From Candidatus Eiseniibacteriota bacterium (GTDB lineage Bacteria; Eisenbacteria; RBG-16-71-46; CAIMUX01; VGJL01), in the NCBI GenBank assembly GCA_041946735.1, contig JBHGAY010000007.1, forward strand, positions 64,001 to 128,000: DNA of 64,000 nucleotides. The letters are read 5' to 3'. Shown here piece by piece: positions 35,172 through 55,404 of the stretch. The translations under genes were made by a program, and so were the position numbers. The notes under the pieces were generated by a model. The model was given only the letters and a program-made list of their open reading frames with translations. It did not search any database and was not told the DNA's origin. The first letter of the stretch is position 1, and every line of letters begins with the position of its first letter.

Positions 35172-35849
35172 TCACTCCCGGATCAGGGAGGGAAGCAGCT
35201 TGACGACCTCAGACAGGAATCGCTCGTTCCAGGCCTCCGCTTCGCCCGCCCGGGGCGTCTCGAGCGTCGAAATCCGCACGAAGACGCCATAGGTGCTGTT
35301 GCGCCGGAGACCCTGCCAGAACTGACGCCACCGGTATCGGCCGACGTCCCCCCCCGCCGTCCCGCCTCCGCCTTCCGTATACCAGAACGTCGCGACTCGT
35401 TCGACCCGGCCCGGCCTTGTCGCGAGAAATGCCTGGGCGGCGATGCGGTCGGCTTGCGCGCCGACTTCGACGTTCGAGAGCTTCTCGGTCCGGAATCCCT
35501 GGCTGCGGTAGCACAGCTCGGGATCGTGGCCTCCCCGCCTCTTGTTGCCGAAGTACTCGAGGACCACCCACACAGGGGTCCCGTCCGGCCGCATGTAGCG
35601 GCGGATCAGCTGATCGTCGCTGTCCAGATCCTCCACGATCGCCTGCGCCATCGGCTCGTCCTTGCCGGGAAGGCCCAGGAGCGTTTGCGGAAGCGCGCGA
35701 AGGTCGCTGACCGGCGGCGCGGCGGGTGGAAACCCGACCCGATAGGCGCCGAGGAGAAGGAGAAGCAGGCCGGGGAACAGGACGGGCAGCGCGATCCGCT
35801 TCCGCATCGCAGCGCCCGCTCCCGGCATCGAGGCAGGCGCGTTCAGCAT
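35172..35849 (-). CDS. epsI: Exosortase-associated EpsI family protein
   Basis: TM anchor; LPQTL, LIRRY..PVWVVLEYF, HDPELCYRSQG, FWY, FVRIST; overlaps the exosortase stop. Confidence 0.87.
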   Translation of the reverse strand: MLNAPASMPGAGAAMRKRIALPVLFPGLLLLLLGAYRVGFPPAAPPVSDLRALPQTLLGLPGKDEPMAQAIVEDLDSDDQLIRRYMRPDGTPVWVVLEYFGNKRRGGHDPELCYRSQGFRTEKLSNVEVGAQADRIAAQAFLATRPGRVERVATFWYTEGGGGTAGGDVGRYRWRQFWQGLRRNSTYGVFVRISTLETPRAGEAEAWNERFLSEVVKLLPSLIRE

Positions 35850-36709
35850 CGCAGCACCCGCTTCGCGAGCGCGAGCAGGACGAAGGCGATGGCGAAGAGC
35901 GCGTAGCCGCCAACGTCGTGGAAGGTCCCCGCAGCCGCGTCGGGCGTCGCGAGGCCCGCGTAGACGCAGAGCGAGGAGACGCGAACCGTGTTGGCGATGA
36001 CGGCGATCGGGACCGACAGGACGAAGAGGATCACCCGCCGGACGAGCGATCCGCTCGAGAAGTAGGCGAAGAGCGCCCCGAGCGCCATGAGAGCGACGAG
36101 CGAGTGCAGGCCGGAGCACGCTCCTTCGACGGCGAGCGTCCCGTTGGGGAAGTTCATGTTCACGCCATCACGTTGCACCGCGACCCCCATCGCCTGCGCT
36201 GCCCAGACGGCGGTGCGGGCGGCGAGGATCTTCAGCCGGAAGCTGATCGTGTTGAGGAACCAAGGGAGCGCGGGCACCATGAACAGGAGGAACGCGAGCG
36301 GGAAGGCGGCGCGGCGGATCGCGGCGCTCCCGTGGATCTGCCAGACGACCCCGCCAAGAGCGAGCACCAGCGAGATCCCCTGCAGGATCATGACGTCCCC
36401 GCGCAGCCCGGCGAGCTGCAGCAGGAAGGCGGGAACGAGCAGGACGACGCCGGTCCATGCCGGGCGCGCCTCCGTGAGCGCGAGGCTTCGCCTCTGCCTC
36501 CAGAGCAGCCACGCGGCGACCGGTGGGATCAGGAAGCCGTGCGAGTAGTTCGGATTATGAAGCCATACCCGGAACAGTCCCTGGAACGTCGATGCGTACG
36601 CGAGCGCGATTCCGATGGTGGCCAGCACGAGCCCCGTGAGCAGGATTCCGCGCGAGAGTGAGCTGCGTGCCGCGCTCTCCTCCCCGCTCCTCCAGCCCGG
36701 GACCTCCAT
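35843..36709 (-). CDS. xrt: Exosortase (EpsH family)
   Basis: NYSHGFLIPP, FPLAFLLFMVP, VEGACSGLHSL (Cys), ANTVRV (Arg), FHD (His); alternative GTG start at 36733. Confidence 0.94.
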   Translation of the reverse strand: MEVPGWRSGEESAARSSLSRGILLTGLVLATIGIALAYASTFQGLFRVWLHNPNYSHGFLIPPVAAWLLWRQRRSLALTEARPAWTGVVLLVPAFLLQLAGLRGDVMILQGISLVLALGGVVWQIHGSAAIRRAAFPLAFLLFMVPALPWFLNTISFRLKILAARTAVWAAQAMGVAVQRDGVNMNFPNGTLAVEGACSGLHSLVALMALGALFAYFSSGSLVRRVILFVLSVPIAVIANTVRVSSLCVYAGLATPDAAAGTFHDVGGYALFAIAFVLLALAKRVLRC

Positions 36710-36729
36710 CGCCTGGCCGCCCGGGTCGG

Positions 36730-38931
36730 TCACCGCCCGCTGCTCCTCGCCGTCTGGTAGCCGTAATAGCGATGGTTGTAGTAGTAGGGCATCGTCTCGT
36801 CGACGTTGTTCATCAAGAGCCCGCGCAGATTGCCCGTGAACTGCTTCTGCAGCTCGACCCCGCGCTCCACCATCGCGCGTGGCGTCCGTCCCGCCTTGAC
36901 CACGATCAGGACGGCGTCGACGACCTGTCCGATGATGAGCGCGTCGGGGACCGGAAGGTTCGGCGGAGAGTCGATGAGGATCACGCCGTAGCGCCTCGTC
37001 AGCTCGGTCACGAGCCAGGCGATGTTCTCGAACGTGAGCAGGTCGTTGCGGGGCTGCGGGTGCCCGCCGAGCGAGAGGACATGGAGATTGGGCACCGGCG
37101 TCTTGCGGAAGGACGCGTCGTCGAGCCGCCGCGTCTCGAGAGCCTGGATGAGACCGGGGCCGTGCGGCTCGGCTCCCAGCATCCGCCCGAGAGCGCCGCG
37201 CCTCAGGTCGATGTCGACCAGCAGGACGGGGACGCGGGGCTCCTCGGTCGCGATCGCCGAGCCGAGCAGGATGCAGGCGGTCGTCTTGCCTTCCCCGCCC
37301 CGGGTGCTCGTGATCAGAAGAGAGCGAACTGGCGCATCCTCGTCGTTGCGCAGCTCGAGCGCGATGCGACGCATCTCCTGATAAGCGGGAGAGTCGCCGA
37401 GGAAGCGGTCGAACGCCTGCTGCGTCCAGTGCGGCCGGTCCTTGGCCGCTCCGAGCATGTCGAGCTGCGGCAAGGTGCCGATCACGCGGATCCCGAGCGC
37501 GCGCTCCGCCTCTCGCGAATCGCGGAAGGTCGGATCCTGGCGCTCGACGATGGCGAGCGCGGCGATCCCGAGGAGCAGCCCGATGATCCCTCCCAGGACG
37601 AGAATGACCGGGCGGTTCGGCTTGATCGGGCTGAGAGGACGGGCAGGCGGCTCCAGGATCGACATGCGCCCCTGCTCCATGCTGCCCACGAACGCCTCGC
37701 CGATCTTGCTCGACGCCAATTGGTTGACGAACGCGTTGTACAGCGCCCGCTTGTTCTCCACCTCCCGCGTGAGCCGCTGCACCTCCGTCTCGATCGCCGG
37801 CGTTCCGGTCACGGAGGACTCCGATCGGGAGATCGCTCGATCCAGGGCGCCGAGCCGTTCGCGCACTCCCGCCATCCGAGCCTGCGTCACGAGAAGGGCC
37901 GCCGCGTCGGAGCGAACGGAGGCGGGAATCGCGTTGCCCCCTTCCCACTGCTCGATCGCCTCCTGCTGCAGGTCGCCGAGCGCTTGCGCCGTGAGGACGG
38001 CATACGTTTCGGCGTCGTTCTGCGATCCATAGGGATCCGCGGCCGCTTCGGCATACTTGCGCTCGAGGTCCTTGACCTGCTCCACGACCCGCGAGTAGGC
38101 CGGGCCGCCCGCGCTGGGCAACGCGGCGAGAGCGCTTGGCGCCTTCGACTGGATGGAGCGCCGGAGCCGCTGCTCCTCGGTCGAGAGACGGGCGCTCTCC
38201 GACGAAGCCTCGTCGCGCAGGCGCCGGACTTCCGTCAACCCCGCGCTGTTTCCCGAAGCGCGGAGAGCGCCGAGCGCTGCGGAGCGCTTCGCGTCGTCGA
38301 GGCTCTTCTCGGCGTCGGCCAGCTCCTGCTTGTACACCGCCATCTGCATCTCGCTGAAGCGGTACATCTCCTTCACGCGCTCCAGCTGAGCGCTGCTGTT
38401 CGCCTCGATGACGCCGGTCGCTACTCTCTGGGCCAGATCCTGCGCGCGAAGGGGATCGGCGTGGACCACGCGGATCGTCAGAATGTTCTCCGCGATCCTC
38501 AGGCCGATCCAGTGGCGCAACAGCTCAGGAATGCAGATGTTCTCCAGTTCCTCCTGGGAAAGGCCCGGATATCGCCGCGCATTGCTGTTCACCCAGGCTT
38601 TCACTTCGGGGTCTTCGCGCAGCCGGGACTGGGACGCGACCTTCAGCAGGAAGTCGTTGCTCTGGACGAGAGCGCTCAGCCGTGCGATCTGTTCCTGCAT
38701 TCCGGAGCTCGGAAGGATCCCCTGGAGGTCCTTTGTCACCGGGGCGGGAAAGTCGACGAGGATCCGCGCGGTCGATTCGTAGACGGGCGGTAGCACCTTG
38801 GGATGCCCGATGACGAAACCGGCAAGCAGCCCTGCCAGCACCGGCGCGAGGACCACCCACTTCCTGCGCCACACCATGGTGACCATCCCGCGAAGATCGC
38901 GCGCCTCGCGAACGTTCGGCCTTATTTCCAT
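36730..38931 (-). CDS. wzc: Polysaccharide co-polymerase / tyrosine autokinase
   Basis: WRRKW plus TM, periplasmic coiled coil, P..PIKPN plus TM, ITSTRGGEGKTT, VDIDLRR, ILIDSPP, tyrosine-rich tail PYYYNHRYYGY. Confidence 0.92.
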   Translation of the reverse strand: MEIRPNVREARDLRGMVTMVWRRKWVVLAPVLAGLLAGFVIGHPKVLPPVYESTARILVDFPAPVTKDLQGILPSSGMQEQIARLSALVQSNDFLLKVASQSRLREDPEVKAWVNSNARRYPGLSQEELENICIPELLRHWIGLRIAENILTIRVVHADPLRAQDLAQRVATGVIEANSSAQLERVKEMYRFSEMQMAVYKQELADAEKSLDDAKRSAALGALRASGNSAGLTEVRRLRDEASSESARLSTEEQRLRRSIQSKAPSALAALPSAGGPAYSRVVEQVKDLERKYAEAAADPYGSQNDAETYAVLTAQALGDLQQEAIEQWEGGNAIPASVRSDAAALLVTQARMAGVRERLGALDRAISRSESSVTGTPAIETEVQRLTREVENKRALYNAFVNQLASSKIGEAFVGSMEQGRMSILEPPARPLSPIKPNRPVILVLGGIIGLLLGIAALAIVERQDPTFRDSREAERALGIRVIGTLPQLDMLGAAKDRPHWTQQAFDRFLGDSPAYQEMRRIALELRNDEDAPVRSLLITSTRGGEGKTTACILLGSAIATEEPRVPVLLVDIDLRRGALGRMLGAEPHGPGLIQALETRRLDDASFRKTPVPNLHVLSLGGHPQPRNDLLTFENIAWLVTELTRRYGVILIDSPPNLPVPDALIIGQVVDAVLIVVKAGRTPRAMVERGVELQKQFTGNLRGLLMNNVDETMPYYYNHRYYGYQTARSSGR

Positions 38932-39000
38932 TCCCAGTCTCCTGCTCGACGCCCCGTGCCGGGCGGCGTCCTTCCGAGTCCCCGGACCGCGACGCCCGGA

Positions 39001-40062
39001 TCAGTTGTGCTCGTCGATGTAGTCCGAGATGAGAAAGAAGTTCAAGAGATCGCGGGAGGCGCCGAGAAGCACGCGGGTCGCGCCCCACGTCGCCCGCGCG
39101 GCGGTCATCGGGGGCTTCGGAACGTGGATCGCGTCGCCCGCTTGAACGGGAAACGCCGTCCCTCCTTCGTCGAGCCCCTTCTTCACGTCGACCACCACGA
39201 CGTAGCTGCTCCCGTTCGCGTCCTGTCCGAGGACTTGCACGTGCCGCAGGTCGCCGGTCGGAAGCGCGCCGCCGGCGAGGCTCAGGACGCGGATCAGGTC
39301 GAGGCCGGGAACCACGCCGTACGCGCCGGGCCGCGCCACCTCGCCCGACACATAGACCGACGTTCCGCTGGGTCCGGCCACTCCCGTCCCGGCGATGGGG
39401 ATGGGAGGGACATAGATCACGTCGCCCGCCTGCAAGGCCGGAAGGTTCGTCACGCTTCCCCCCGCCATGGCGGAGGCGACGTCGACCGTGAGCGGAGACT
39501 GCCCCGCGGGAGCGTTCTCGCGGAAGATCTGCACCCGCGATAGGTCGCCTCCCGCTCCGAGCCCGCCCGTCGTCCCCAGCACCTGCACCAGATCCGGCAT
39601 CTTCTCGAAGCCGATTCGGCCGGGCGTCGTGACCGCCCCGGAGACGACCACGTAACGGCTGTTGAAGGCGGCGACGCTGACGTTCACCTGCGTCGGGCGC
39701 CGGAGGAAGTCGTTCAGGCGGTTCTCGAGGTCGCGCTCGAGCGCGGTGACCGTCTTGCCGGCGGCCGGCACCTCTCCGATCGGCGGAAAGGTGATCGCCC
39801 CGTTCCCCTGCACCGTCACCGTCCGCGACAGCTCCGGTCGATCCCAGACCCCGATGTTCAGCACGTCCTCGGGGCCGAGGGTGTACTCCCCTGCCTGCTG
39901 CGCGCGAGCGATGTCGGGGTCCCCCCCGGCGAGCAGGAGCGCGAACGAGACGGCGAGCGCCGCGAGGCCGAGGCCTGGGCGGAAGCCGAAGCAGAAGGCG
40001 AGGACGTGGCGAACGGCGGCCGCGGGGCTCGCGGCCGAAGACGAATGAGAGAGCTGGTTCAT
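39001..40062 (-). CDS. wza: Polysaccharide export protein with SLBB domains
   Basis: YTLGPEDVLNIGVW..PELS..GAITFPPIGEV.AAGKT; two SLBB repeats (VSGAVTTPG, VSGEVARPG). Confidence 0.88.
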   Translation of the reverse strand: MNQLSHSSSAASPAAAVRHVLAFCFGFRPGLGLAALAVSFALLLAGGDPDIARAQQAGEYTLGPEDVLNIGVWDRPELSRTVTVQGNGAITFPPIGEVPAAGKTVTALERDLENRLNDFLRRPTQVNVSVAAFNSRYVVVSGAVTTPGRIGFEKMPDLVQVLGTTGGLGAGGDLSRVQIFRENAPAGQSPLTVDVASAMAGGSVTNLPALQAGDVIYVPPIPIAGTGVAGPSGTSVYVSGEVARPGAYGVVPGLDLIRVLSLAGGALPTGDLRHVQVLGQDANGSSYVVVVDVKKGLDEGGTAFPVQAGDAIHVPKPPMTAARATWGATRVLLGASRDLLNFFLISDYIDEHN

Positions 40063-42731
40063 CCTTCCTCCCCGGACGATGTGCGGACGAGGGTTCCCGC
40101 TCCCGCAGAGCCGGCGCCGGCGGCGACCGCGGGCCGAGCCGGGCTTCGCTGGGCCGGCCTCTTCTCGCTCAACAGGCGCGGGAGCGCCCGGCGCAGGGCA
40201 TCGAGATCGAGCTGCCAGTTCCCGTGGTGCCCGTAATAGCGGTCGTAGACCAGAACCTCCTCCCCCCCGCCTGCAAGCAGCTGGGCAGGGCCGGTCAGAC
40301 CGGGCCTGCGGGCGAACGTCCAGGCCCCGATCTCCTCCTGCCTCCACACGTCGCTCTCGAGCAGGTGAGCGGAAGGCCCGACGAGACTCATGTCTCCCCG
40401 GAGGACGTTCCAGAGGTAGAGGACTCGGTCCAGATGAGCGGCCGCGATCCATGCGGCGAACCTCCTCTGGAGCGGGCTGGAGGACGTCGAACGCTCCAGC
40501 CGGAGACGGTAAGTCACGAACGGCCGGCCGGGAAGACGCTTCTTGCGCCGATCGGCGTTGCGCCGGTCGATCCCGACCCGGCTTTCCTGGCTGCGCCGGT
40601 CGGCGCAGCGCCGGTTGCGGCCGATCCGGGTCTCCGCCTCGAAGACCACCTGGCCGGAGCCCGCGAGGTGCAGCAGACCCCACGCAGCCGCGGCGGGGAT
40701 CGCGAGAAGCACGAGGCTCGTCGCCGCCGCCATCACGTCGAGAAGCCTCTTCCCCGTCGGCTCGCTCGCGGTGGAATACAGAGGGCTCTCCGCCTCCGTC
40801 GCCTCGGCCGGCGCCAACGACGGAAGCGCGGGCGGCGGAATCTCCCGGAACTCCGGCACGAGCAGCTGGAGACCGGCACGGATCTCCCCCGCCGGCGCAT
40901 GCGCGGCGAGCCGGATCAGCTGCTCGACCTCCTTCTCGAAACGGGGCGTGTCGACCGGATCGAGTTCGCAGCGGAAGATCTTCGCGTGACGGGTGGTGCG
41001 CGTCGTCTCCGCCTTCGTCAGGATCTCCTCCTCGAGCTTCTCCCCCGGCCGCAGTCCGACGAAGTCGATCCGCACGTCCCGGTCCGGCTCGAGCCCGCTC
41101 AGCCGGATCAGCTGTCGCGCGACGTCCAGGATCCGGACCTGCTCTCCCATATCGAGGATGAAGATGTCGCCGGACTGCCCGAGCAACGCTGCCTGGATGA
41201 CGAGCTGGCTCGCCTCGGGGATCGTCATGAAGTAACGGCGCGCGTGGGGGTGCGTGACGGTTAGCGGGCCCCCGCGGGCGAGTTGCCTGCGGAAGATCGG
41301 AAGGACCGAACCTTCCGAGCCGATGACGTTCCCGAAGCGGACGGCGACGAACGTCGTGCGCGACCGCGACGACAGCGCCTGCAGCAGCATTTCGCACGCC
41401 CGCTTCGAGGCTCCCATCACGTTCGTCGGGTTCACGGCCTTGTCGGTCGAGATGAGGATCATCGTCTCGACGCCGGCCGCCTCGCACGCCCTCGCCACGT
41501 TGCGCGTCCCGAGGATATTGTTCAGGATCGCCTCGCGCGGTCGCGTCTCGAGCAGATTGACGTGCTTGTGCGCGGCGGCGTGAAACACGAGGTTCGGCGA
41601 AAGCTCCACGAGCAGCTCGTGCAGGCCGATCTCGTCCTTGATGTCGCCGACCACGTGCAGGACGTCGAGCGAAGGATGCGCCTCGCGAAGCTCGAGCCCG
41701 AGATAGGTGAGGTTGTTCTCGTTGTGGTCGAGCAGCACGAGCCGGGCGGGCGCGAAGCGCGCGATCTGCCGGCAGAGCTCCGATCCGATCGAGCCTCCCG
41801 CCCCCGTGACGAGCACCACGCTTCCCGCGATCCTCTGTCGGATGCCGGGCAGGTCGATGCTGATCGGCTCGCGGCCGAGCAGGTCCTCGATCCGCACCTC
41901 GCGCACCTGATCGAGCGCTCCTCTGCCTTCGATGTAGTCGGAGAGCGCCGGGACGGTGCGGCAGGCGATGCCTGATTCGAGGCAGACGCGCACGACTTGC
42001 CGCAGGAGCCGGCCGGGCGCCGAGGGGGCGGCGATCAGAACCTCTCCGACTTCCTTCTCGTGGATCAGCCGGGGAAGGTCGAACGTCGTTCCGAGCACCT
42101 GCAGCCCTTCGATCCTCGCGCCCATCTTGCCGGGATCGTCGTCGACGAACCCGATCGGGTGCCCCGGATACGCGACCGTGCGCTCCAGCTCGCGGGCGAC
42201 CATCGCTCCGATGTCCCCGGCGCCGACGATGAGGATCCGACGGCCTGTCCTCGGTCCTCTCCGAACCGGGCTGACCAGGAGCCGGTAGCTAGCGCGCGTG
42301 CCGAGCACCAGGGCGATCGTGAGGATCCAGGAGAGGATGATGACGCTCCGCGGCAGCGGTTGCGGCTGGATCAACAAGTTGACCAGGTAGAAGACGCCGA
42401 AGCCGAGCGTCAACGCGTTCAGGATCGAGAGCGCGGTGGGCAGGCCGACGTAGCGCCAGAGCGTGCGGTGCACGTGAAAGAGGTTGAGGAAGAGCAGGCC
42501 GGCGATCGTCGCGAAGTAGGAGACCTCGACGTAACGATGCAGATATTCCACCGGGATGCGCCCGTCGAAGCGGAGCAGCAACGCGATCAGCACCGCCCCG
42601 TTGATCAGCAGCGCATCCAGCAAGTTCAGGAGAAGGATGCGTGTCCTACGGCCCAATCTCCCTGTCCTCCAGCCGTGCGGGGAGTCGATCCCGTACGCAG
42701 ATTCGAAGCCCGTGATGCCGCGAGGGCGCAT
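40059..42731 (-). CDS. CapD/PglF-type nucleotide-sugar 4,6-dehydratase fused to a degenerate sugar-transferase domain
   Basis: 4 TM; IVGAGDIG; IEDLLGR; VTGAGGSIGSELCRQ; FHAAAHKHV; ISTDKAVNPTNVMGASKR; VRFGNVIGSEGSV; GLRPGEKL; then KRLLD..WNVLRGDMSLVGP..RPGLTG. Confidence 0.9.
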   Translation of the reverse strand: MRPRGITGFESAYGIDSPHGWRTGRLGRRTRILLLNLLDALLINGAVLIALLLRFDGRIPVEYLHRYVEVSYFATIAGLLFLNLFHVHRTLWRYVGLPTALSILNALTLGFGVFYLVNLLIQPQPLPRSVIILSWILTIALVLGTRASYRLLVSPVRRGPRTGRRILIVGAGDIGAMVARELERTVAYPGHPIGFVDDDPGKMGARIEGLQVLGTTFDLPRLIHEKEVGEVLIAAPSAPGRLLRQVVRVCLESGIACRTVPALSDYIEGRGALDQVREVRIEDLLGREPISIDLPGIRQRIAGSVVLVTGAGGSIGSELCRQIARFAPARLVLLDHNENNLTYLGLELREAHPSLDVLHVVGDIKDEIGLHELLVELSPNLVFHAAAHKHVNLLETRPREAILNNILGTRNVARACEAAGVETMILISTDKAVNPTNVMGASKRACEMLLQALSSRSRTTFVAVRFGNVIGSEGSVLPIFRRQLARGGPLTVTHPHARRYFMTIPEASQLVIQAALLGQSGDIFILDMGEQVRILDVARQLIRLSGLEPDRDVRIDFVGLRPGEKLEEEILTKAETTRTTRHAKIFRCELDPVDTPRFEKEVEQLIRLAAHAPAGEIRAGLQLLVPEFREIPPPALPSLAPAEATEAESPLYSTASEPTGKRLLDVMAAATSLVLLAIPAAAAWGLLHLAGSGQVVFEAETRIGRNRRCADRRSQESRVGIDRRNADRRKKRLPGRPFVTYRLRLERSTSSSPLQRRFAAWIAAAHLDRVLYLWNVLRGDMSLVGPSAHLLESDVWRQEEIGAWTFARRPGLTGPAQLLAGGGEEVLVYDRYYGHHGNWQLDLDALRRALPRLLSEKRPAQRSPARPAVAAGAGSAGAGTLVRTSSGEEG

Positions 42732-42856: not shown

Positions 42857-43543
42857 TTATCTGGGGCGGCGGCGGAACGCAAGCCCGGAGCCGAGAAGCC
42901 CCGAGGCAAGCAGCAGCAAACTGGCAGGTTCCGGAACCGGCTCGATCGCGGCTCGCAGCTGGCCGTCGATCCGGTAGTCGTATCCGGCGGGGATTCCGCC
43001 TCCGGCTCGAGTCGTGCCGCCGAAGGTGAACAGATCGTAGTCATCGAGGTGGGGATAGTAGAGTCCGCCGTCGTACACGCCCGTCCCGGAGAATGTCCCG
43101 ACGTTTTGCACCGTGTCCAACAGGAGCGAGAAGCTCTGGAAGTTGCCGCGCAGCCAGAGATCCCCGTCGACGAAGCTCGGCGGTGCTCCGAGCGGGTTCG
43201 CGCCATAGGCGTAGGGACGATCCAGATCTCCTGTGGACTGGAAGATCTGGAAGCTGCCACCCGAGTAGGCGCGAAGCTGAAAGCCCCCGCCCACGTCCTG
43301 CTGGCTTGCGAGGACGAGGTCCGAGAGATAGTAGGTGTACACCTCGCTGGGGTCCTGCACCTGCGGGGTGAAGCCGTCGAGCACCCCGACCGACTCGAGC
43401 TTCACCTGCCTCGGCTGCGTCATGGTCCATGTGAAGCCGGTGTAATCCATCAAGAGCGGAAGAGCGAACGAGCTGCCCGCCGTTGCGGCGAGAAGCGAGA
43501 CCATCAGGAACGCACTGCGCAAAGTTCCCCGGAATGGATGCAT
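42857..43543 (-). CDS. PEP-CTERM sorting-domain protein
   Basis: Signal peptide ending SSFA; C-terminus VPEPASLLLLASGLLGSGLAFRRRPR; SD GAGGAGG. Confidence 0.92.
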   Translation of the reverse strand: MHPFRGTLRSAFLMVSLLAATAGSSFALPLLMDYTGFTWTMTQPRQVKLESVGVLDGFTPQVQDPSEVYTYYLSDLVLASQQDVGGGFQLRAYSGGSFQIFQSTGDLDRPYAYGANPLGAPPSFVDGDLWLRGNFQSFSLLLDTVQNVGTFSGTGVYDGGLYYPHLDDYDLFTFGGTTRAGGGIPAGYDYRIDGQLRAAIEPVPEPASLLLLASGLLGSGLAFRRRPR

Positions 43544-43689
43544 GCGTTTCGAACCTCCTCGATCGGTTCCCGGGCGAAGAAGCCGCCCGCTCTGCTTTCG
43601 AATCGGTGTGGCGTGGGTCGCCGTTCTCACCGGCGTCGCCCCTGCCGGCCCTTTCAGCCTTCTGCTCGCTGTGAGCTGCGCCGGCGCCC

Positions 43690-44376
43690 TCATCGGTACA
43701 GCCCCTTGATCGCGCCCCAGCTCGCCGGCCGGGTCGCGACCGGAGCGGGCGCGAGCAGCTGCGGATCCCACGCCATGTCGTACCCCTCCGGCTCCCCGCC
43801 GAAAGGACCGGAGGCGGTGCCGCCGAAGAAGAGCCACTGCGCGGGATCTCCGATCTGATCGAGCTTCGTGCCGCCAGTGAAGTCCACGTGGCCCTGGAAG
43901 ACTCCGCTGAGTCCCGGGCCGTTCCAGACGAGGCTGCCGTCGGTGACCCGACCTTCGAGGATCAGCACGCCGTCCTGGAATGTGGCGGGGACCTGCGCGT
44001 TCGGAGGGTTCCACTGCCAGACCGCGTTCCTCGCCGGGTCCTCGAAGACCCGGATCGTTCCACCCGCGTAGGTGACGGCCGTCACGGGTCCCGTGACCTG
44101 GACGCTCTCGATCACGAGGTCCGAGACCAGTACCGTGTATTCGTTCGTAGCCAGGTCGAGCGGGAGGACCGGCTCCGGCTGGACGGGATCGAACAACATC
44201 GGGATCGTCGTCACGGTGCCGGCCGTGAAGGCCGGTCCGTCCAGGTAGGAGTAGCCGTAGAAGTCGAAGAATGGATTCCCGTTGGCAGCGCTCCACGTGC
44301 CGAGCGCGGCCGTGATCAGGAGAGTCCAGGCCAGGACTCCCGATGCAAGGCTTGTCTGCTTCCCCTGCGTCCTCAT
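43690..44376 (-). CDS. Exported protein, paralogue of the adjacent PEP-CTERM protein, ending in SWGAIKGLYR
   Basis: Signal peptide; colinear similarity to 42857..43543; SD AAGGGAG before ATG 44376 (ORF open from 44424). Confidence 0.85.
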   Translation of the reverse strand: MRTQGKQTSLASGVLAWTLLITAALGTWSAANGNPFFDFYGYSYLDGPAFTAGTVTTIPMLFDPVQPEPVLPLDLATNEYTVLVSDLVIESVQVTGPVTAVTYAGGTIRVFEDPARNAVWQWNPPNAQVPATFQDGVLILEGRVTDGSLVWNGPGLSGVFQGHVDFTGGTKLDQIGDPAQWLFFGGTASGPFGGEPEGYDMAWDPQLLAPAPVATRPASWGAIKGLYR

Positions 44377-44443: not shown

Positions 44444-44472
44444 ATTATCCTCGATCAGAAATCAATCGTCAA
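44444..44472 (-). promoter_or_regulatory. Sigma-70 promoter at the head of the exosortase locus
   Basis: TTGACG-17 nt-GATAAT with AT-rich upstream flank. Confidence 0.75.
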
Positions 44473-48044: not shown

Positions 48045-48809
48045 CTAGTTGAGGCTGAATCGCATCGGGATCTGTACCCAGACGGCGACCGGCTTGTGCT
48101 GCTGGAGCGCCGGCTTGAAGACCGCTTTGCGTGCGGCCGCAATCGCCGCGTCATTGAGCATCGGCACCCCTTCGGTGACGAACGCGTCCTGCACCTTCCC
48201 GTCCTTGCCGACCAGAGCGCGCACCATGACCGTCCCCTCGACTTCGGCCGAGCGGGCCATGTCCGGATAGACGGGAGGGGGGATCTGGATCAGGACCGGC
48301 ATCTCCTCGACCGCGACGAACTCGTCCGGCGAGGGGTTGTCGTTCTGCGCCGAAGGGATATCGACGATCAGCGAGTCGCCACCGCCCGAATCGAGCGAGG
48401 AGAGGCTCGTCGGAACGAGAGCCTCGGCGAGTTCCGCCTGGCTCGCGATCGTGGACGTCGTCGCCTGGAAGTCGGGCACCGGCTCCGGGATACCGATCGA
48501 GGGCGGAGCGGCGGCGGCCGCGACCTGGACCTGCGTGGCGGTCGCCTCCTGCGCGATCGAGGGAGGCACACCCAGCTCGGTGTACTTCACGATCTTCACT
48601 TCCCGGACGACCGGAGGCGCTTCCCTCTCCAGGCTGCGGGCGATCAACCAGCCGCCGAAAAGCCCCACATGGAACATCAGAGCGATCGACACCGCCCAGT
48701 AGAGGAAACGCGAGTACCGCTTGCGAAGCGGATGCGCGTTTCCGACGACCGGAAGGCGCGCCGCGTCGGGAAAGGCGTAAGGATTGGGCTTCATCGTCGC
48801 GGCTTTCAT
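48045..48809 (-). CDS. tonb: Energy transducer TonB
   Basis: TM with S..FH; Pro-rich linker; YPDMARSAEVEGTVMVRALVGKDGKV..FKPALQ..KPVAVWVQIPMRFSL. Confidence 0.9.
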   Translation of the reverse strand: MKAATMKPNPYAFPDAARLPVVGNAHPLRKRYSRFLYWAVSIALMFHVGLFGGWLIARSLEREAPPVVREVKIVKYTELGVPPSIAQEATATQVQVAAAAAPPSIGIPEPVPDFQATTSTIASQAELAEALVPTSLSSLDSGGGDSLIVDIPSAQNDNPSPDEFVAVEEMPVLIQIPPPVYPDMARSAEVEGTVMVRALVGKDGKVQDAFVTEGVPMLNDAAIAAARKAVFKPALQQHKPVAVWVQIPMRFSLN

Positions 48810-49300
48810 GACGCCGACTCCAGCACCTTGATGTCTTCGGGCCCCAAGGGGATGAGACTGAAGCGGCTCATGTTCGCGAGCTCCAGCTCGTCCATGACGT
48901 CCACCATCGTCTTGTACTTCGCCGCCCGGTCGACCTTCACGAGAATGATCAGCTCGGGATTGAGCTTCGCGTTCTCGGTGAAGAGCGTCCGGAGATCCTT
49001 CATGGAGGTCGTCGACACGCCGCCCGTACCCATACGCCAGTAGAACCCGTTGTCCGGGGTGACGTACAAGGTAAGGACGTTCGACTCCGCGACCTGCACC
49101 TTCGTGTCCGCCGGCGGCAGGTTCACCTCCATCGCCTGCGGCTTGCGAAAGACGGTCGTCACCATGAAGAAGATCAAGAGGAGGAAAGCGATGTCGACCA
49201 TCGGCGTCATGTCGATGCGGATCGCCACCCTACGCTTGTGGCGGAGGCCAAAGCCTTTCTTCTTCTGTTGCGGTTTGTCCGCAAAGTCCATCCCGCCCAA
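48806..49300 (-). CDS. exbD: Biopolymer transporter ExbD (second copy)
   Basis: IDMTPMVDIAFLLLIFFMVTT, YKTMVDVMDEL; start 49300 or 49291. Confidence 0.92.
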   Translation of the reverse strand: MGGMDFADKPQQKKKGFGLRHKRRVAIRIDMTPMVDIAFLLLIFFMVTTVFRKPQAMEVNLPPADTKVQVAESNVLTLYVTPDNGFYWRMGTGGVSTTSMKDLRTLFTENAKLNPELIILVKVDRAAKYKTMVDVMDELELANMSRFSLIPLGPEDIKVLESAS

Positions 49301-49305
49301 AGCGC

Positions 49306-49755
49306 CTACCTCCCTTGGTTCTCCCCGCCTGTCGTGCTGGCTGTCTTGAGCTCCGTCATCAGGTTGAACCGGTTCGTATTCGTATGCTGCAGCGCGTCCA
49401 TCACGTCCGCAATGAGACCGTAGTCGGTCTCCTTGTCACCCTTGACGATGACGCGGGCGCCGGGACGGCGGCTTCGCGCCGTGACGATCGCGTTCACCAG
49501 CTCATCCTTCGGGACCTCTCCGGCCGCGCCCGATTCGTCTCCGATGAAGATCTTCCCGGACTTGTTCGCCGTGATCACGATGATTCCGGTCTCGGGGACC
49601 TTGATCTCGGAGCTCGACTCCGGCAGCGTGACCGACACCTCCTCGGGCGGCTTGAACTGCGTCGTCGACATGAAAAAGATCAACAGAAGGAACGCCACAT
49701 CGACCATCGGCGTCATGTCGATGCGGATCGCGACCCTGTGCTTAGCCTTGGCCAC
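49306..49755 (-). CDS. exbD: Biopolymer transporter ExbD (first copy)
   Basis: IDMTPMVDVAFLLLIFFMSTT, IVKGDKETDYGLIADVMDAL. Confidence 0.92.
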   Translation of the reverse strand: MAKAKHRVAIRIDMTPMVDVAFLLLIFFMSTTQFKPPEEVSVTLPESSSEIKVPETGIIVITANKSGKIFIGDESGAAGEVPKDELVNAIVTARSRRPGARVIVKGDKETDYGLIADVMDALQHTNTNRFNLMTELKTASTTGGENQGR

Positions 49756-50479
49756 GGGCCGACTCCTTCTGGTGCTCGAGCAACTGGACGACCTCGTAGG
49801 TCGTCTCGTCCATGTTGTAGTTGAAGCTGTCCACGCGGTTCGTGAAGTAGTTGTACATGACGATCGAGATGATCGCGAGGAACAGGCCGCCGGCCGTGTT
49901 GATCAGCGCCTCGGAGATCCCGATGGCGAGCTGGATGGCGTCGGCCGCGCCGGCATGCCCCATCGCCTTGAACGAGCGGATCATTCCGATCGTGGTGCCG
50001 AGCAGACCGACCATCGTGGCGATCGAAGCGATCGTCGAAAGAGCGATCAGGTTCCGCTCGAGGAGCGGCGTCTCGAGGGCGTTCGCCTCTTCGATGGCGC
50101 GGCGCGTCTCCTCGATCAGCTCGTCCTTCGGAAGGTTCGCGCTCCCCTTGAGGAAGTGGTAGCGCTCCAGCCCGGCGCCGACCACGTTCGCGAGGGAGCC
50201 GCCCTGCTTCTTGCACACGTCGATCGCGGCCTGGATCTGATTCGCGTCGATGTTCTTCTTCAGGTTCCTGGCGAAGGCGTTCATGTCGCCGCGCCCCTGG
50301 GCCCGCTTCAGCGTGATGAGCCTCTCGACGATGAACGTCAGCGAAAGGATCGACAGCGTCATCAGGATCGGGACGAGGTAGCCGCCGAGACGGATGAAGT
50401 CCGGCAGCATGTACTTGTAGATCGCCAGCGATACGAGCACCGCCAGGACGAGGATCGGGAGGAAAACATAGCCTTTCAT
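49742..50479 (-). CDS. exbB: MotA/TolQ/ExbB proton channel protein
   Basis: LSTIASIATMVGLLGTTIGMIRSF, GISEALINTAGGL. Confidence 0.92.
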   Translation of the reverse strand: MKGYVFLPILVLAVLVSLAIYKYMLPDFIRLGGYLVPILMTLSILSLTFIVERLITLKRAQGRGDMNAFARNLKKNIDANQIQAAIDVCKKQGGSLANVVGAGLERYHFLKGSANLPKDELIEETRRAIEEANALETPLLERNLIALSTIASIATMVGLLGTTIGMIRSFKAMGHAGAADAIQLAIGISEALINTAGGLFLAIISIVMYNYFTNRVDSFNYNMDETTYEVVQLLEHQKESARGQG

Positions 50480-50514
50480 TTCTGCCCTCCGTTGAGGCCC
50501 TTCATGCGCCCGGT

Positions 50515-50859
50515 TTAGGCGCGGTTGGCTCCCGACAGCGCCTCCTCAACGCTGTCGAAAGTCTCGAAAACGAACGAAAGCTTCGTGATCAAGAAGACGC
50601 TGTTGATGCGCTTGCCGATCCGGGCGAGCCGCAGCCACCCCTCTCGGTTGCGACAGCTGGTGTGCGCCGCCACGAGCGAGCCGAGACCGGCGCTGTTGAC
50701 GTAGGAGACCTTCCCGAGATCGATGATGATGTGCGGCGGCCCCTGCGTGAGGATCTCCTGGATCGCGCGCTCGAGCTCGCGCGTCTCCTCGCCGCCGCTC
50801 AAGTCCTTCTTCGGTGTGAGGATGTGGACGTCACCCCGCTTCTCGACATCGACGTTCAT
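50515..50859 (-). CDS. STAS-domain anti-sigma-factor antagonist
   Basis: IIIDLGKVSYVNSAGLGSLV (phosphorylatable Ser), ITKL..FETFDSVEEAL. Confidence 0.9.
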   Translation of the reverse strand: MNVDVEKRGDVHILTPKKDLSGGEETRELERAIQEILTQGPPHIIIDLGKVSYVNSAGLGSLVAAHTSCRNREGWLRLARIGKRINSVFLITKLSFVFETFDSVEEALSGANRA

Positions 50860-50909
50860 CCTTCGTTCCTCCTGCCCGTGGCGGCCGAGCCCGCCCGCCC
50901 AGGCTGCGA

Positions 50910-52754
50910 CTATTGCTGCCCCTTCTCGAGAATCTGGACGAGCTTCTTCGCGTTCTCGTGCTCCGGGTTGATTTCCAGCGCTTTCTTGATCGCCGCGAGC
51001 CCCGCTGCGGTCTGCCCCTGAACGGCGAGGGCCTGGCCGTAGAGGACCCAGCTGTCCGCGTTCCCAGGATCGATCGTCGTGGCCTGCTTCAGAACGTTCG
51101 CTGCGTTGGCGTAATCCTTCCTCTTGAAGTAGCTGAGGCCCAGCCCGCGCAGAGCCATGGCGTTCTTCGGATCCTTTTCCGTGGCGGTCTTGAACGCCTG
51201 GATCGCCGCTCCCGTGCTGTCCGCCATCTGTAGCAGATTGCCCAGGTATGACCAGGCGGGAGCGAAGTCAGGCGCCAGCGATGTGGCCTTCCGCAGGTCG
51301 GCCACGGCGCTCGAGGTCTGTTTCAGCTGCGCCTTGGCGAGGCCGCGGTTCATCCACGCTCCCGAGTTCGAGGGGGCGAGCTCGATCGTCCGGTCGAAAT
51401 GCAGCACCGCCGAGTCGGGCTTCTGCTGATAGAGATCGAGCAAGCCGAGGCTGAACCAGGCATCGGCCTGAGTCGAGTCGAGTTCGACCGCGCGCAGGAG
51501 ATCCGCCTGGGCGGGGTCGAACTCCTTGTCCTCGAGCTTCATCTGTCCCATCGCCACATAATCGGTCGCCTCGAACTTCGTCGTATCGGGAAGCGAAGCA
51601 TACGCTTTCTTCGCCTGATCCCTGTCTCTGTTGAAGTACAGGGCGCGCGCTCGCAGCAGTCGGGTCTCCACGTTCGTGCTGTCGAGCACGTACGCCTGCT
51701 GCGCCGCGTCGAGAGCGGGGCGGTACATGCGTGCTTTGATGGAGACGTCGGCCAACCCCCGGTATCCCTGCGGGTCGTCCCTCCGAAGGCTCGTATACCG
51801 CAGGTACGCCGAAGCCGCCTCCTCGTTGCGCTTCGCGAGCGAGTAGAGCTGCGCCATGTCCTTCCAGGCCAGCGCGTACGTGGAGTCGATGATGACCGCC
51901 TGCTTGTACTGCTCGAGAGCCTCGTTGTAGCGCTGCTCCTCCTGGTACAGAACGCCGAGCGAATGGCGGACCGGGGCGGTGGCGGTCAGGCCCGGCGTCG
52001 CCAACGCCTGCTCGTACACCGGAATGGCGAGAGACCGGGCGCCGCGCGCCGTGTAGATCTGCGCGACGAGCGTTCCATAGTCCGGATCGTTCGGGTAGAT
52101 GACGAACGCCGACAACGCGTTCTTCTCGGCCGCCTGGATGTCTCCCTCGGCCTGCTGGACCAGGGCCATGCCGTAGTGGTAGTAGTCGGCGCGCTCCTTG
52201 CGCCCCTTCTTCCTCTCTCCCTTCGCCAGGAGCTTCTTCGCCTCGTCGAGCTTTCCGTCGCGGATCAGGATCCTCGCAAGGCCGTACTGCGCATCCCAGA
52301 GACTCCCCTTCTGCCGCAGAGCGGTGTCGAACTCCTGTTTCGCCTCTTCGTAGCGCTGGAGCTTGAGAAGGGTGAGCCCCAGTCCGGCGTGAGCTTCAGG
52401 GAAGTCCTCCTTGCCGGTCTCCTTGTTCTTCTCGATGATCGCCTGCCGGTAGAGCGGCTCCGCCTCGGCGTACGAGCCCTGCAAGGCGAGGATCTCCGCC
52501 TGCCCTTGATGGGCGTTGTAGACCTGATGCTCGTTCGCGATCGCTTCCTCGAAGTACTTCCGAGCCTGGTCGATGTCGCCTTGCTCGAGGGCGTTGTTCC
52601 CGAGCCGGATCGGATCGTCCTCGTACCGGTAGCTTTTCTTGGCCGCCTCGGCGACGACCGGAAGCGAGGCCGCGACCAGGAGCAGGACGAGGCCCCCCCG
52701 GATCCGCTTGCGCATAAAGGAACGCAGCATCAAGTTCTCCCTTTCCAGCAACAT
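50910..52754 (-). CDS. Exported long TPR-repeat protein
   Basis: Signal peptide ending VAEA; roughly 15 tandem TPR repeats; start could be 52730. Confidence 0.88.
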   Translation of the reverse strand: MLLERENLMLRSFMRKRIRGGLVLLLVAASLPVVAEAAKKSYRYEDDPIRLGNNALEQGDIDQARKYFEEAIANEHQVYNAHQGQAEILALQGSYAEAEPLYRQAIIEKNKETGKEDFPEAHAGLGLTLLKLQRYEEAKQEFDTALRQKGSLWDAQYGLARILIRDGKLDEAKKLLAKGERKKGRKERADYYHYGMALVQQAEGDIQAAEKNALSAFVIYPNDPDYGTLVAQIYTARGARSLAIPVYEQALATPGLTATAPVRHSLGVLYQEEQRYNEALEQYKQAVIIDSTYALAWKDMAQLYSLAKRNEEAASAYLRYTSLRRDDPQGYRGLADVSIKARMYRPALDAAQQAYVLDSTNVETRLLRARALYFNRDRDQAKKAYASLPDTTKFEATDYVAMGQMKLEDKEFDPAQADLLRAVELDSTQADAWFSLGLLDLYQQKPDSAVLHFDRTIELAPSNSGAWMNRGLAKAQLKQTSSAVADLRKATSLAPDFAPAWSYLGNLLQMADSTGAAIQAFKTATEKDPKNAMALRGLGLSYFKRKDYANAANVLKQATTIDPGNADSWVLYGQALAVQGQTAAGLAAIKKALEINPEHENAKKLVQILEKGQQ

Positions 52755-52760
52755 CTCGTC

Positions 52761-53765
52761 TCAGCCGGCCGTCTGCAGCGGTTTGCTCGTGAGGACGACC
52801 TCATGGGGCACGTCTCGCGCCGGCAGGAAACCCTCGCTCGCCACGAGCCTCTGTCCCCTCCCGCTATGGAGGAACGTGACGAATCCGGAGGCGCTCGCCG
52901 TACTCTTAGGCGTACAGGATACATACAAGTAGTGAAAGAGCGGATATTCCCCGGTCGCGATCGCGGTCTCGGTGGGCCGCGCCGCGTCCGGTCCAGCGCC
53001 TTGCCCGTCCGGCCGGATCCGGATCGCTTGCACACCCGATCTCGCGAGATCCGGCGGCAACTCGAGCGTGCTCGCGATGCCGAGACCGTGAGGATCGCGG
53101 GAAACCGCCTCGATCACTTCCTGCTCCCCGGCGAGGAACACGACGCGCCCGGACGCGGCGCTCGAGAGGCCGAGCTGCGAGAGCAAGGCGTCCCAGAGAC
53201 CCTGGTTCGGATCCGGCACATAGAGGTGCTGCGGCGCCTCGAGTTCCTTCGGCTCCTCTCCCTCGAGGAGCGAACGGAGCGTTTGCACCGGCACCGACTC
53301 CGGCACCCCAGGAGATGTTGCGGCGAGGAGCGCGATCCCGCCGAGCGCGATCGGAAAGACGAGCGTCGACTCCCCCGCCTCGTGCACCACCGCCCGCTCC
53401 TCCATCGTCAGGTCGCGATTCAAGAAGGCTACGTCCGCCCGGCCGTTCAGAAGATCCTCCAGGGCCTGCCGAGTCCCGCCGTGGAGCACCTCGATCGACG
53501 TCTTCGGGTACAACTCGCGATACGCGGACGCCAAACGGGGAATCAGCATCGGTGCGCAGTCGAGACCGGCGAGGACGAGCCGGGCCTCCGCGGGATTCGA
53601 GCGAGGAGGCTCCTTCACCCGCGACCGCCAGTCGGGGACGAACCGCAGGACGACCAGCGCGAGGAGGATCACGAGATAGATCCATATCCTGCCGCCGGCC
53701 AAGAGGTCGAACCCGGGACGCCGTGGCCTCGGCCTCCTCCCCCGCTCCGTGCCCGTCCGGTCCAT
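52761..53765 (-). CDS. Membrane-anchored PstS-like (PBP2) substrate-binding-domain protein
   Basis: One TM; YRELYP..GGTRQALEDLLNGRADVAFLNRDLT, PIALGGIALL, IATGEYPLFHYLY, FLHSGRGQRLV..GF. Confidence 0.82.
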   Translation of the reverse strand: MDRTGTERGRRPRPRRPGFDLLAGGRIWIYLVILLALVVLRFVPDWRSRVKEPPRSNPAEARLVLAGLDCAPMLIPRLASAYRELYPKTSIEVLHGGTRQALEDLLNGRADVAFLNRDLTMEERAVVHEAGESTLVFPIALGGIALLAATSPGVPESVPVQTLRSLLEGEEPKELEAPQHLYVPDPNQGLWDALLSQLGLSSAASGRVVFLAGEQEVIEAVSRDPHGLGIASTLELPPDLARSGVQAIRIRPDGQGAGPDAARPTETAIATGEYPLFHYLYVSCTPKSTASASGFVTFLHSGRGQRLVASEGFLPARDVPHEVVLTSKPLQTAG

Positions 53766-53771
53766 CAGCCT

Positions 53772-54752
53772 CTAGCGGCGTCCGACCTGGACACCCAGGA
53801 ACGGCACGACCTCTCCATGGTTCGCGCGGGCACCGAGCCCGAGGTGAAGGCGTTCCTTGTAGAACGGCGAGAGGCGAAGGCTTGCGGACGCATACGGACT
53901 CTGATCGTCCGTCCCCCCCTCTTCCGTGAGCAGCGAGTATCCGGCCGAGAGATCGAGACCGAGGCGGCGGTGGATCAGGCTGCGCGAGACGAGCAAGCCC
54001 ACCTGCTTGTTGGAGACCGCTTGATCGGTTCCCAGACCGAAGCCGAGCTCGACTCCGACGTCCACCTTTCCATCGCGAGGCTCCCAGAGGAGCTGCTGCA
54101 GCTGCAGGTTCGTCAGATCGACCTCGTCGCTTCCGACGTCCCGCCGCACCATCAGTCCGGTCTTCTCGGGGAATCGTCCGGTCGGGTCATAGGTCTCTTG
54201 CCGCCGCGCCGCCATCAGATTGGCGGCGACCCGGTCGCGCTCCGCCCTCGTGTCCGTCAGCTGCTTCGCCAGAGCGTCGGCGCGTGTGCGGAGCGAGTCG
54301 ATCTCCGCCTGCCGAGACGCCACGTTCATGCTGTCTCGCACGGACTGGGCGACCGCCTCGTCGGTCTGGTCGCGAAGCGAGAGAATCGCATCGGAGAGAC
54401 CGATCACCTGCTGATCGAGCGTCTGCCGGCGCACGAATCCCGCCTCGATGTCGCTGCGTAGCTGCAGCAGGCCGCCGACCGCGTGGACGCTGTCGGCTTT
54501 CATCTGCTCGAAGGTCGAGAGGGTCGCGGTGACGACGGAGTCGGCTTGAGCGAGCAGACGCTGGCCTTCGAGGGTCGCGGCTTCGCGCTCCTGCTGCTTG
54601 CTGGCGATGATCTCGACCCCTTTGGTGTTCATGTACATCCGGCCCGTGATCAGGAAGATGGCCGCGATCAGGATCAGATCGAGGATGTAGAACGCATGCC
54701 GGGGGCGGAGCCGGAATTTCGGATCGAAGGTCTCTTCGTCTTGGAAACGCAT
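53772..54752 (-). CDS. Hypothetical protein: TM, coiled coil, C-terminal beta-strand-rich domain
   Basis: FYILDLILIAAIFLI; heptad-rich middle; alternating strands VGVELGFGL, LGLDLSAGYS, PFLGVQVG. Confidence 0.75.
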   Translation of the reverse strand: MRFQDEETFDPKFRLRPRHAFYILDLILIAAIFLITGRMYMNTKGVEIIASKQQEREAATLEGQRLLAQADSVVTATLSTFEQMKADSVHAVGGLLQLRSDIEAGFVRRQTLDQQVIGLSDAILSLRDQTDEAVAQSVRDSMNVASRQAEIDSLRTRADALAKQLTDTRAERDRVAANLMAARRQETYDPTGRFPEKTGLMVRRDVGSDEVDLTNLQLQQLLWEPRDGKVDVGVELGFGLGTDQAVSNKQVGLLVSRSLIHRRLGLDLSAGYSLLTEEGGTDDQSPYASASLRLSPFYKERLHLGLGARANHGEVVPFLGVQVGRR

Positions 54753-54762
54753 CGTTTGCTCC

Positions 54763-55404
54763 TCACCGCTTCGGTAGCGCGTCGCGGTTCGGGAAGTCCC
54801 CTTCCCCGGTCACGAGCGCGGAGTTCTTCCTGTAGGCCTCGGGATGGAGCAGGCGGTCGGCCAGATCGTTGGTCGCCGCGATCTCGGTCTCGAGCTGCGC
54901 GATGTCGTTCGATCGCTGCTCGATCAGCGCCCGGAGGGAGTCCACGCGAGCCTGCATCGTCTCGAGGCGCCGAGAGTAGGCGTCGCTGTGTTCCGTCGCC
55001 GTCGCATAGACGGTCCGGAGGGAGTCGGACTCGACCTCCATCGTGCGGATCTCCGTCAGGTTGTCATGGATCATCGTCTGGATGGTGTCGAGGATGGCGC
55101 CGGCCTGCTCGCCGCGCACGGCGATCGTGTCTCCCACGGCCCGCAACGCGGAGATGCGGATATTCACCTTCCGCGCCCTCGTGAGCGAAACGTTGCGCGT
55201 CTCCTCGACGCCCTTGCGCTCCTTCGCCATCTCCTCTTCGATCGCCTTCGTCTGCGGATCCACTCTCTGCGCGTCGAACCACCAGACTGCGATGAGCGGG
55301 ATCACCAGGTACCAGCTGCGCGTGTAGAGCTTCCGGAGAAAGCTGCTGAAGGCGCTCCGGTGCTCTCCCGTATCCGACCAGCCGGGCCGTTCTCTATAGG
55401 GCAT
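54763..55404 (-). CDS. Hypothetical membrane-anchored coiled-coil protein
   Basis: SD AAGGAGG; SWYLVIPLIAVWWF followed by a long coiled coil. Confidence 0.75.
   Translation of the reverse strand: MPYRERPGWSDTGEHRSAFSSFLRKLYTRSWYLVIPLIAVWWFDAQRVDPQTKAIEEEMAKERKGVEETRNVSLTRARKVNIRISALRAVGDTIAVRGEQAGAILDTIQTMIHDNLTEIRTMEVESDSLRTVYATATEHSDAYSRRLETMQARVDSLRALIEQRSNDIAQLETEIAATNDLADRLLHPEAYRKNSALVTGEGDFPNRDALPKR

Follow-up and report, generated by a model that had tools for sequence, protein, structure and literature searches.

To our knowledge, the catalogued short C-terminal sorting signals of diderm bacteria are tripartite and contain a membrane helix, and the signal of the T9SS is a folded domain. 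Outer-membrane translocons built from a barrel plus a lipoprotein include curli CsgG/E/F and Slam. According to one study, small C-terminal sorting domains are recognized by criteria that include position, multiplicity, signature, a signal peptide and a transmembrane helix (bioRxiv 10.1101/2023.06.07.544157). For T9SS cargo, a review describes a signal formed by an Ig-like fold, a KxxxK motif at the end, and a PorU site of Ser/Thr/Asn/Asp followed by Gly/Ser/Ala (PMC5445135). In Poribacteria, T9SS-type domains are reported in the absence of structural genes (PMC3909097). The tail analysed here, referred to as the TWG tail, fits neither of the two known types, yet swaps with both on one passenger family.

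The window, i.e. the whole stretch of 64,000 nucleotides from Candidatus Eiseniibacteriota bacterium that was analysed, contains a tandem gene pair whose products share a passenger domain and differ in their C-terminal ends. The pair is organized as follows:

44444..44472, minus strand: sigma-70-like promoter match upstream of gene 1 (10/12; consensus match; 0.2 expected in shuffles)
43690..44376, minus strand: gene 1 (P0001), 228 aa, with a signal peptide, a small β-barrel passenger and a TWG tail
44281..44376, minus strand: likely Sec signal peptide of gene 1, approximately residues 1–32, assigned from the sequence
43753..44280, minus strand: passenger domain of gene 1, a predicted β-barrel like small 8-stranded barrels, of no named family
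43690..43743, minus strand: TWG tail of gene 1, P-V-A-T-x-x-x-S-W-G-x-I-K-x-L-Y-R-stop
42857..43543, minus strand: gene 2, 228 aa from the ATG at 43543, with a signal peptide, the passenger domain of gene 1 and PEP-CTERM
42857..42937, minus strand: PEP-CTERM signal of gene 2 (VPEP, hydrophobic segment, RRRPR)

Gene 1 ends in PAPVATRPASWGAIKGLYR-stop and gene 2 in VPEPASLLLLASGLLGSGLAFRRRPR-stop. An earlier note, made from the letters of the window, had described the two genes as paralogues that match in a series of colinear segments and diverge right after a common QL. BLASTP confirmed the paralogy, with 61 of 184 residues identical (33%, E 7e-14), and the alignment stops at the common QL. All of the listed segments are found in the translations and all except the first pair lie inside the BLASTP alignment; the first pair aligns in a 23-sequence alignment of the passenger, in which 18 columns are invariant across both subfamilies. 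The assignment of the gene 2 tail to PEP-CTERM was likewise correct, since it scores above the cut-offs of TIGR02595 (21.5 bits, cut-off 16) and PF07589 (28.5 bits, cut-off 20.7). Gene 1 had no NCBIfam or Pfam match at E up to 1. Of the signal peptides claimed for both proteins, that of gene 1 missed a crude hydrophobicity threshold, although residues 10–26 form an N-terminal helix in the structural model.

The TWG tail closes all 21 homologues of gene 1, PEP-CTERM closes all ten homologues of gene 2, and the homologues of the pair carry the label Candidatus Eisenbacteria. The pair is kept in identical order and with identical tails in four of five same-family genomes, indicating an old duplication with stable, differing tails. 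The gene 1 passenger was modeled with a pLDDT of 82; its best solved match is 2q03 (Z 9.6, rmsd 3.1, 117 aligned), and Foldseek returned no match at E 0.001. Reading a passenger function from the fold was abandoned, as no match rose above background and soluble and membrane 8-stranded barrels scored equally. A short helix is predicted for the TWG core (residues 220–227) with low confidence. Gene 2 weakly matches PepA (NF033554), a flocculation-associated PEP-CTERM protein, over residues 94–227 (23.1 bits); the score is far under the cut-off of 80 and the matched region takes in the PEP-CTERM tail. The likeness to PepA is that gene 2 heads an exosortase/EPS locus, and gene 1 lacks any NF033554 match.

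This EPS locus, headed by the gene pair, contains Wza-like, Wzc-like, exosortase, EpsI and PrsK-like genes, among them:

40059..42656, minus strand: sugar-nucleotide dehydratase/sugar transferase gene, first of the EPS locus, with matches under cut-offs
36730..40062, minus strand: genes for a Wza-like export protein and a Wzc-like chain-length/kinase protein
35843..36733, minus strand: exosortase (TIGR02602 190 bits, cut-off 105.55; TIGR03109 204.9 bits, just below 208)
35172..35807, minus strand: EpsI, exosortase-associated (TIGR02914 72 bits, cut-off 42.8)

The dehydratase/transferase gene comes after the gene pair in three of four relatives. The genome encodes two exosortases and only ~8 PEP-CTERM proteins. 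One exosortase lies ~6 kb downstream of gene 2 and likely processes the gene 2 product; the other is at G000:C3:9421-16690 (G000 is this genome), where the neighbors resemble the window locus. A barrel that is a divergent member of the PorV/PorQ family (38 bits, cut-off 90) is encoded at window positions 18845-19657 (minus strand), at the opposite end of the EPS/exosortase locus from the pair. Within a few kb of the pair, a row of TonB, two ExbD, ExbB, STAS, TPR and binding-protein genes (48045-55404, minus strand) ends with two proteins, 326 and 213 aa long, that lack annotation.

The TWG tail recurs throughout the genome. Its strict motif was found at 40 ORF ends and at no internal position in 64,434 six-frame ORF segments, and the tail DNA pattern had no match in 100 shuffles of the window. 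In our own gene calls, a relaxed search gave 77 terminal matches, from which one membrane protein was removed to leave 76; three of five extra candidates were taken as variants, making 79 tail proteins among 3,727 genes. The consensus of the 76 tails is P-[VT]-A-[TV]-E-x-x-[ST]-W-G-x-[VIL]-[KR]-[AGS]-[LT]-[YF]-R-stop. It spans ~17 residues, with nine from the Trp to the stop, charged ones among them. Within this genome the Trp is present in 76/76 tails and the Gly in 75/76. Several extra residues beyond the final Arg are tolerated. The codons for the conserved residues vary freely among synonyms, which means that selection acts on the protein. A DNA or RNA element was rejected on this ground, and the matches listed from a scan of a genome collection all end at an in-frame stop.

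The earlier note had expected a general signal to spread beyond one family and to favor exported over cytoplasmic proteins, and both expectations were borne out. The 76 carriers fall into 33 sequence clusters, the largest holding 35, and 114 cargoes of other genomes fall into 75. An N-terminal hydrophobic stretch is present in 60 of the 73 cargoes of at least 100 aa, compared with 23% of 2,595 other non-membrane proteins, and none of these 73 has a later transmembrane segment. The passengers are acidic and Cys-rich, with a net charge of approximately -10.7 per 100 residues; that of the tail is approximately +2.3. No Pfam match was found on 64 of 78 scanned cargoes; passenger domains named in other genomes include β-helices, β-propellers, DUF642 and P-domains. 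No Pfam model covered the tail region in the 78 cargoes, 56 tails had no curated NCBIfam match (one chance match at E 0.069), and a feature-based atlas search with the tail gave no usable match. The published literature, searched outside subscription journals and supplements, contained no description of the tail, its motif or related terms. We conclude that the TWG tail is a real, undescribed C-terminal sorting-type signal that is free of a transmembrane segment.

A DNA pattern of the core plus stop matched in 192 of 206 genomes of the host phylum, with up to 98 matches per genome; the reversed pattern, used as a control, gave four matches in total in host-phylum genomes. A record with the label Latescibacteria led to a second phylum, in which 112 of 121 genomes have the tail. 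In a third, reached through a Neomarinimicrobiota record, three of 101 genomes matched, two of them spuriously and one with a real tail. The genome-collection scan, which is a sample rather than a census, found at least 116 loci, mostly labelled Eisenbacteria, Krumholzibacteria, Latescibacterota or unclassified. A similar TWGxIK ending may also occur in Poribacteria. The tail marks up to ~100 proteins per genome across two phyla; used as a marker, it would let thousands of hypothetical proteins be annotated as exported, and it would supply a 17-residue tag.

Three genomes appeared to be tail-negative (G020, G053 and G055) but in fact carry variant tails, and were discarded as natural knock-outs for profiling. 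In G020, six of seven tails have W-S and one has W-A, over five unrelated passenger groups; in G055, W-S is found in three of three. Such joint drift in genes that are otherwise unrelated is what a single reader in each genome would predict, and tail copying between genes could be an alternative source of it. Among genomes with outlying labels, G206 (Actinobacteria) and G208 have one tail each, and G207 (Limnocylindria) has 32 tails and T9SS genes; these outliers are tentatively read as contamination or labelling. Two tail matches in G207 lie only 76 bases apart on one strand (C28:9028-9136) and may represent a tail duplication or a very small ORF. The cargo most often kept in genomes with one to four tails is a lamin-tail-domain protein (15 of 30 loci; G000:C12:58068-58691, L213). 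It was tried as a pointer to machinery and rejected, as no machinery gene was recognized within 1.5 kb.

The central claim of the earlier note, interchange of tails on one passenger, was borne out, but the usual partner of the TWG tail is the T9SS type A domain and not PEP-CTERM. A T9SS type A domain paralogue exists for 24 of the 76 cargoes in this genome, with many switching at the same junction, and a PEP-CTERM paralogue for only one, namely gene 1 of the window. The best 150 representatives of the window passenger family comprise 114 with the TWG tail, 13 with TWG-like variants, 13 with the T9SS domain, four with PEP-CTERM and six others, the family profile having taken in the tail and so being biased toward TWG forms. 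In the variants, the W is replaced by F, L or I, or the G by another residue. One passenger domain family is therefore seen with three tails: TWG, the T9SS domain and PEP-CTERM. The reading of the tail as an alternative sorting signal is supported by these data: the two window proteins align significantly, the motif extends beyond one family, and it is not equally common on cytoplasmic-type proteins. We infer an export or anchoring route for the TWG tail that is distinct from that of PEP-CTERM.

Like PEP-CTERM, LPXTG, GlyGly-CTERM and MYXO-CTERM, the TWG tail is terminal, present in multiple copies, marked by a signature and carried by signal-peptide proteins, judged against the published criteria (bioRxiv 10.1101/2023.06.07.544157). 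The difference is that tripartite signals have a transmembrane helix and an Arg cluster; the TWG tail has neither, which leaves nothing for an intramembrane sortase to cut. An exosortase was rejected as the TWG reader because of this lack of a membrane segment and because the exchange with PEP-CTERM, seen on the window passenger, extends to just one of 76 cargoes. The T9SS type A C-terminal domain (TIGR04183; here in its FlgD-Ig-like form) occupies the same slot on passengers as the TWG tail. Its linker, Pro-Thr/Ser-Ala/Gly-Val-Glu, resembles the TWG linker, both signals have a basic C-terminal end, both are found on signal-peptide cargo, and T9SS machinery is present in the tail-bearing genomes. 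In contrast, the TWG tail is ~17 residues long versus ~80 for the T9SS type A domain, its cargo is ~2.5 times smaller, and a helix is predicted instead of the Ig-like sandwich, with no HMM match. The 76 TWG proteins and the 251 proteins with TIGR04183-type domains do not overlap.

We estimate a probability of roughly 85% that the TWG tail is a sorting or docking tag read by a protein. A candidate for this protein came from the one lipoprotein-like cargo of this genome, whose family has two members in an operon. The phylogenetic profiling that the earlier note had suggested left this operon and the T9SS unseparated as routes, since T9SS co-occurs with the tail equally. The operon (G000:C12:138364-142459, L211) encodes an outer-membrane barrel, lipoprotein A and lipoprotein B (C12:138364-138996), followed in this genome by secD and secF. 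The barrel, nearly always in single copy, is present in 181 of 206 genomes of the host phylum and 118 of 121 of the second phylum, and is upstream of A in 24 of 30 loci. The barrel, A and B have no NCBIfam match and no Pfam match above cut-off. Lipoprotein A was found in none of the 101 genomes of the third phylum, where one real tail occurs. The arrangement resembles barrel-plus-lipoprotein translocons such as LptD/LptE in that a large outer-membrane barrel is encoded with lipoprotein partners, a likeness at the level of the genes. It differs in that the lipoproteins are NTF2-like and that the barrel and both lipoproteins lie outside named families.

The model of lipoprotein A (pLDDT 93.6) has an NTF2-like fold, with 3rob as the best solved match (E 1.9e-7, Z 15.3, rmsd 2.3, 121 aligned). 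Its last helix, residues 155–160, lies within a block of mean pLDDT 97. The end consensus of 77 A sequences is T (79%), W (56%), G (81%), x, L (79%), R (82%), to be compared with the cargo core [ST]-W-G-x-[VIL]-[KR]. A and B are homologous (probability 99.3), the C-terminal half of approximately half of the B sequences being unaligned in the joint alignment. Of the 77 A sequences, 64 have the TWGxLR helix, versus ten of 79 B-type ORFs, an 11th B match to the regular expression (L263) being false and left out of the count. These ten come from seven genomes, carry the helix after linkers of ~15–30 residues, and could simply be cargo. The sole lipoprotein-like cargo in this genome, C7:10674-11300, is a B paralogue and one of 85 lipoprotein-like proteins here; its family has four members, two of which are in the operon. 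None of 90 near-complete cargoes of other genomes is lipoprotein-like. Some relatives have their NTF2 pocket capped by a C-terminal helix. Since the helix is present in A and usually missing in B, the simplest reading is a site filled in cis in A and in trans in B.

These features suggest the following model. Cargo would leave the cytoplasm by signal-peptide-dependent Sec export, after which the short TWG helix would dock into the pocket of a partner. The predicted partner is the tail-less NTF2-fold lipoprotein B, encoded beside the large barrel. The helix of A, an ordered part of its own domain in the model, would cover the NTF2 pocket, and the open pocket of B would take cargo tails in trans as A's helix does in cis. 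B might then hand the cargo on to the cell surface, with the barrel as the exit. PorU may cleave the linker P-[VT]-A-[TV]-E as it does the linkers of T9SS cargo. For the window pair, the PEP-CTERM copy would be exported with exopolysaccharide via exosortase and the other copy via the TWG route. That B is the reader and the operon barrel the route is a tentative proposal, to which we give somewhat less than even odds. The fuller version, in which Eisenbacteria and the sister phylum have an undescribed outer-membrane secretion system beside T9SS and exosortase, B reads cargo by helix complementation and the tail derives from A's helix, appears rather unlikely. If the barrel were the exit, a new secretion route would result, and the lipoprotein lead names a predicted candidate reader where none stood before.

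Several observations count against the lipoprotein lead. SecD is beside the operon in only five of 30 short loci. The operon is kept without a strict tail in, for example, G169, G171, G211 and G215; in G169, where no tail was found under either pattern, SprA, PorU and PorV are retained as well. In G020 the cargoes moved to W-S tails but lipoprotein A still has TWG. Profile comparison of the tail with A gave only a weak match (13 columns, probability 2), leaving a common origin unsupported. A look-alikes are also found in clusters made up mostly of Rhodothermota, Ignavibacteriota and Bacteroidota.

A close rival, although on balance improbable, sees in the tail a miniature T9SS signal: PorV-family barrels or SprA would read it, the cargo would exit through SprA, and PorU would cut the linker. 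The machinery is at hand: this genome has SprA (494 bits, cut-off 200), PorU (596 bits, cut-off 420) and, of 12 PorV/PorQ-family proteins tested, eight that score over cut-off. No TWG tail is found on any of its 251 proteins with a T9SS domain, which include paralogues of 24 of the 76 TWG cargoes. T9SS domains were present in all 206 genomes, the orthologue of PorV (C11:94853 in this genome) in all 61, and SprA in all 121 genomes of the second phylum; T9SS thus co-occurs with the tail as well as the operon does, and profiling cannot separate the two. Nor can the third phylum, from which the tail (bar one), A and full SprA over cut-off (0 of 101 genomes) are jointly absent. A matrix of the TWG linker scores 1.93 on 209 T9SS linkers versus 1.21 ± 0.19 on shuffles, a value reached by none of 300 shuffles, but the likeness is modest, with 10.5% versus 7.1% at 6 bits or more. 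The K-x-x-x-R end of the tail resembles the KxxxK motif of T9SS cargo, whereas the tail has no Ig-like fold, in which the signal resides, and the residue preceding the conserved Ala is most commonly Val (33/76 tails), a misfit to the PorU preference (PMC5445135). Local T9SS domains mostly have their basic residue at -6 and not at -5, and TWG cargoes are far smaller (median 244 versus 679 aa). G207, with its 32 tails, has no full SprA match; a PorU-like gene and many T9SS domains are present, and the genome may be incomplete.

The tag might instead serve a purpose other than outer-membrane crossing, as a dockerin-like, non-covalent module that fixes cargo to a periplasmic or surface scaffold. 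A short, terminal, sequence-specific helix with lineage drift is what such a module would look like, extensions past the final Arg are tolerated, and some genomes have additional copies of B-type domains. On one passenger family, however, two signals for transport or sorting exchange with the tail in the same slot, and no scaffold with repeated receptor domains was seen in a search within the NTF2 family, making this a distinctly unlikely explanation. Least probable is direct binding of lipid or LPS by a cationic amphipathic helix with no protein reader. The positive tail on strongly acidic passengers (approximately +2.3 against -10.7 per 100 residues), hydrophobic positions at i, i+3, i+6 and i+7, and the replacement of W by F, L or I in variants agree with it. 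Against it, the W and G are near-invariant per genome (76 and 75 of 76) and shift jointly per lineage, the hydrophobic-moment scan has no peak at 100 degrees (0.51 versus 0.73 at 180), and nine residues are short for a stable membrane anchor. A protein-read tag remains the preferred reading.

Two T9SS-related candidates for a tail-specific component were rejected. None of 12 PorV-family neighborhoods was distinctive for a dedicated paralogue, one having a TWG gene two genes off. A 1,111-aa SprA-like protein was dismissed because 85 of the 101 genomes in the tail-poor phylum have similar weak matches; it carries a short SprA-like stretch and is encoded with an Omp85 protein in the PorV-orthologue cluster (G000:C11:83407-94811, partly covered by L133). 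GldN and GldM were each found in none of five genomes, in a search that detected no positive control; SprA, PorU and PorV without these two could represent a T9SS lacking the usual ring and motor, with the same caveat of the control. Three further clusters (G000:C13:32392-38609, C35:18734-25940 and C11:14038-21102) each combine a large TonB-dependent-receptor-like barrel, a variant T9SS domain protein and a dedicated PorV-family barrel. This repeated arrangement calls to mind type B cargo that has a partner of its own.
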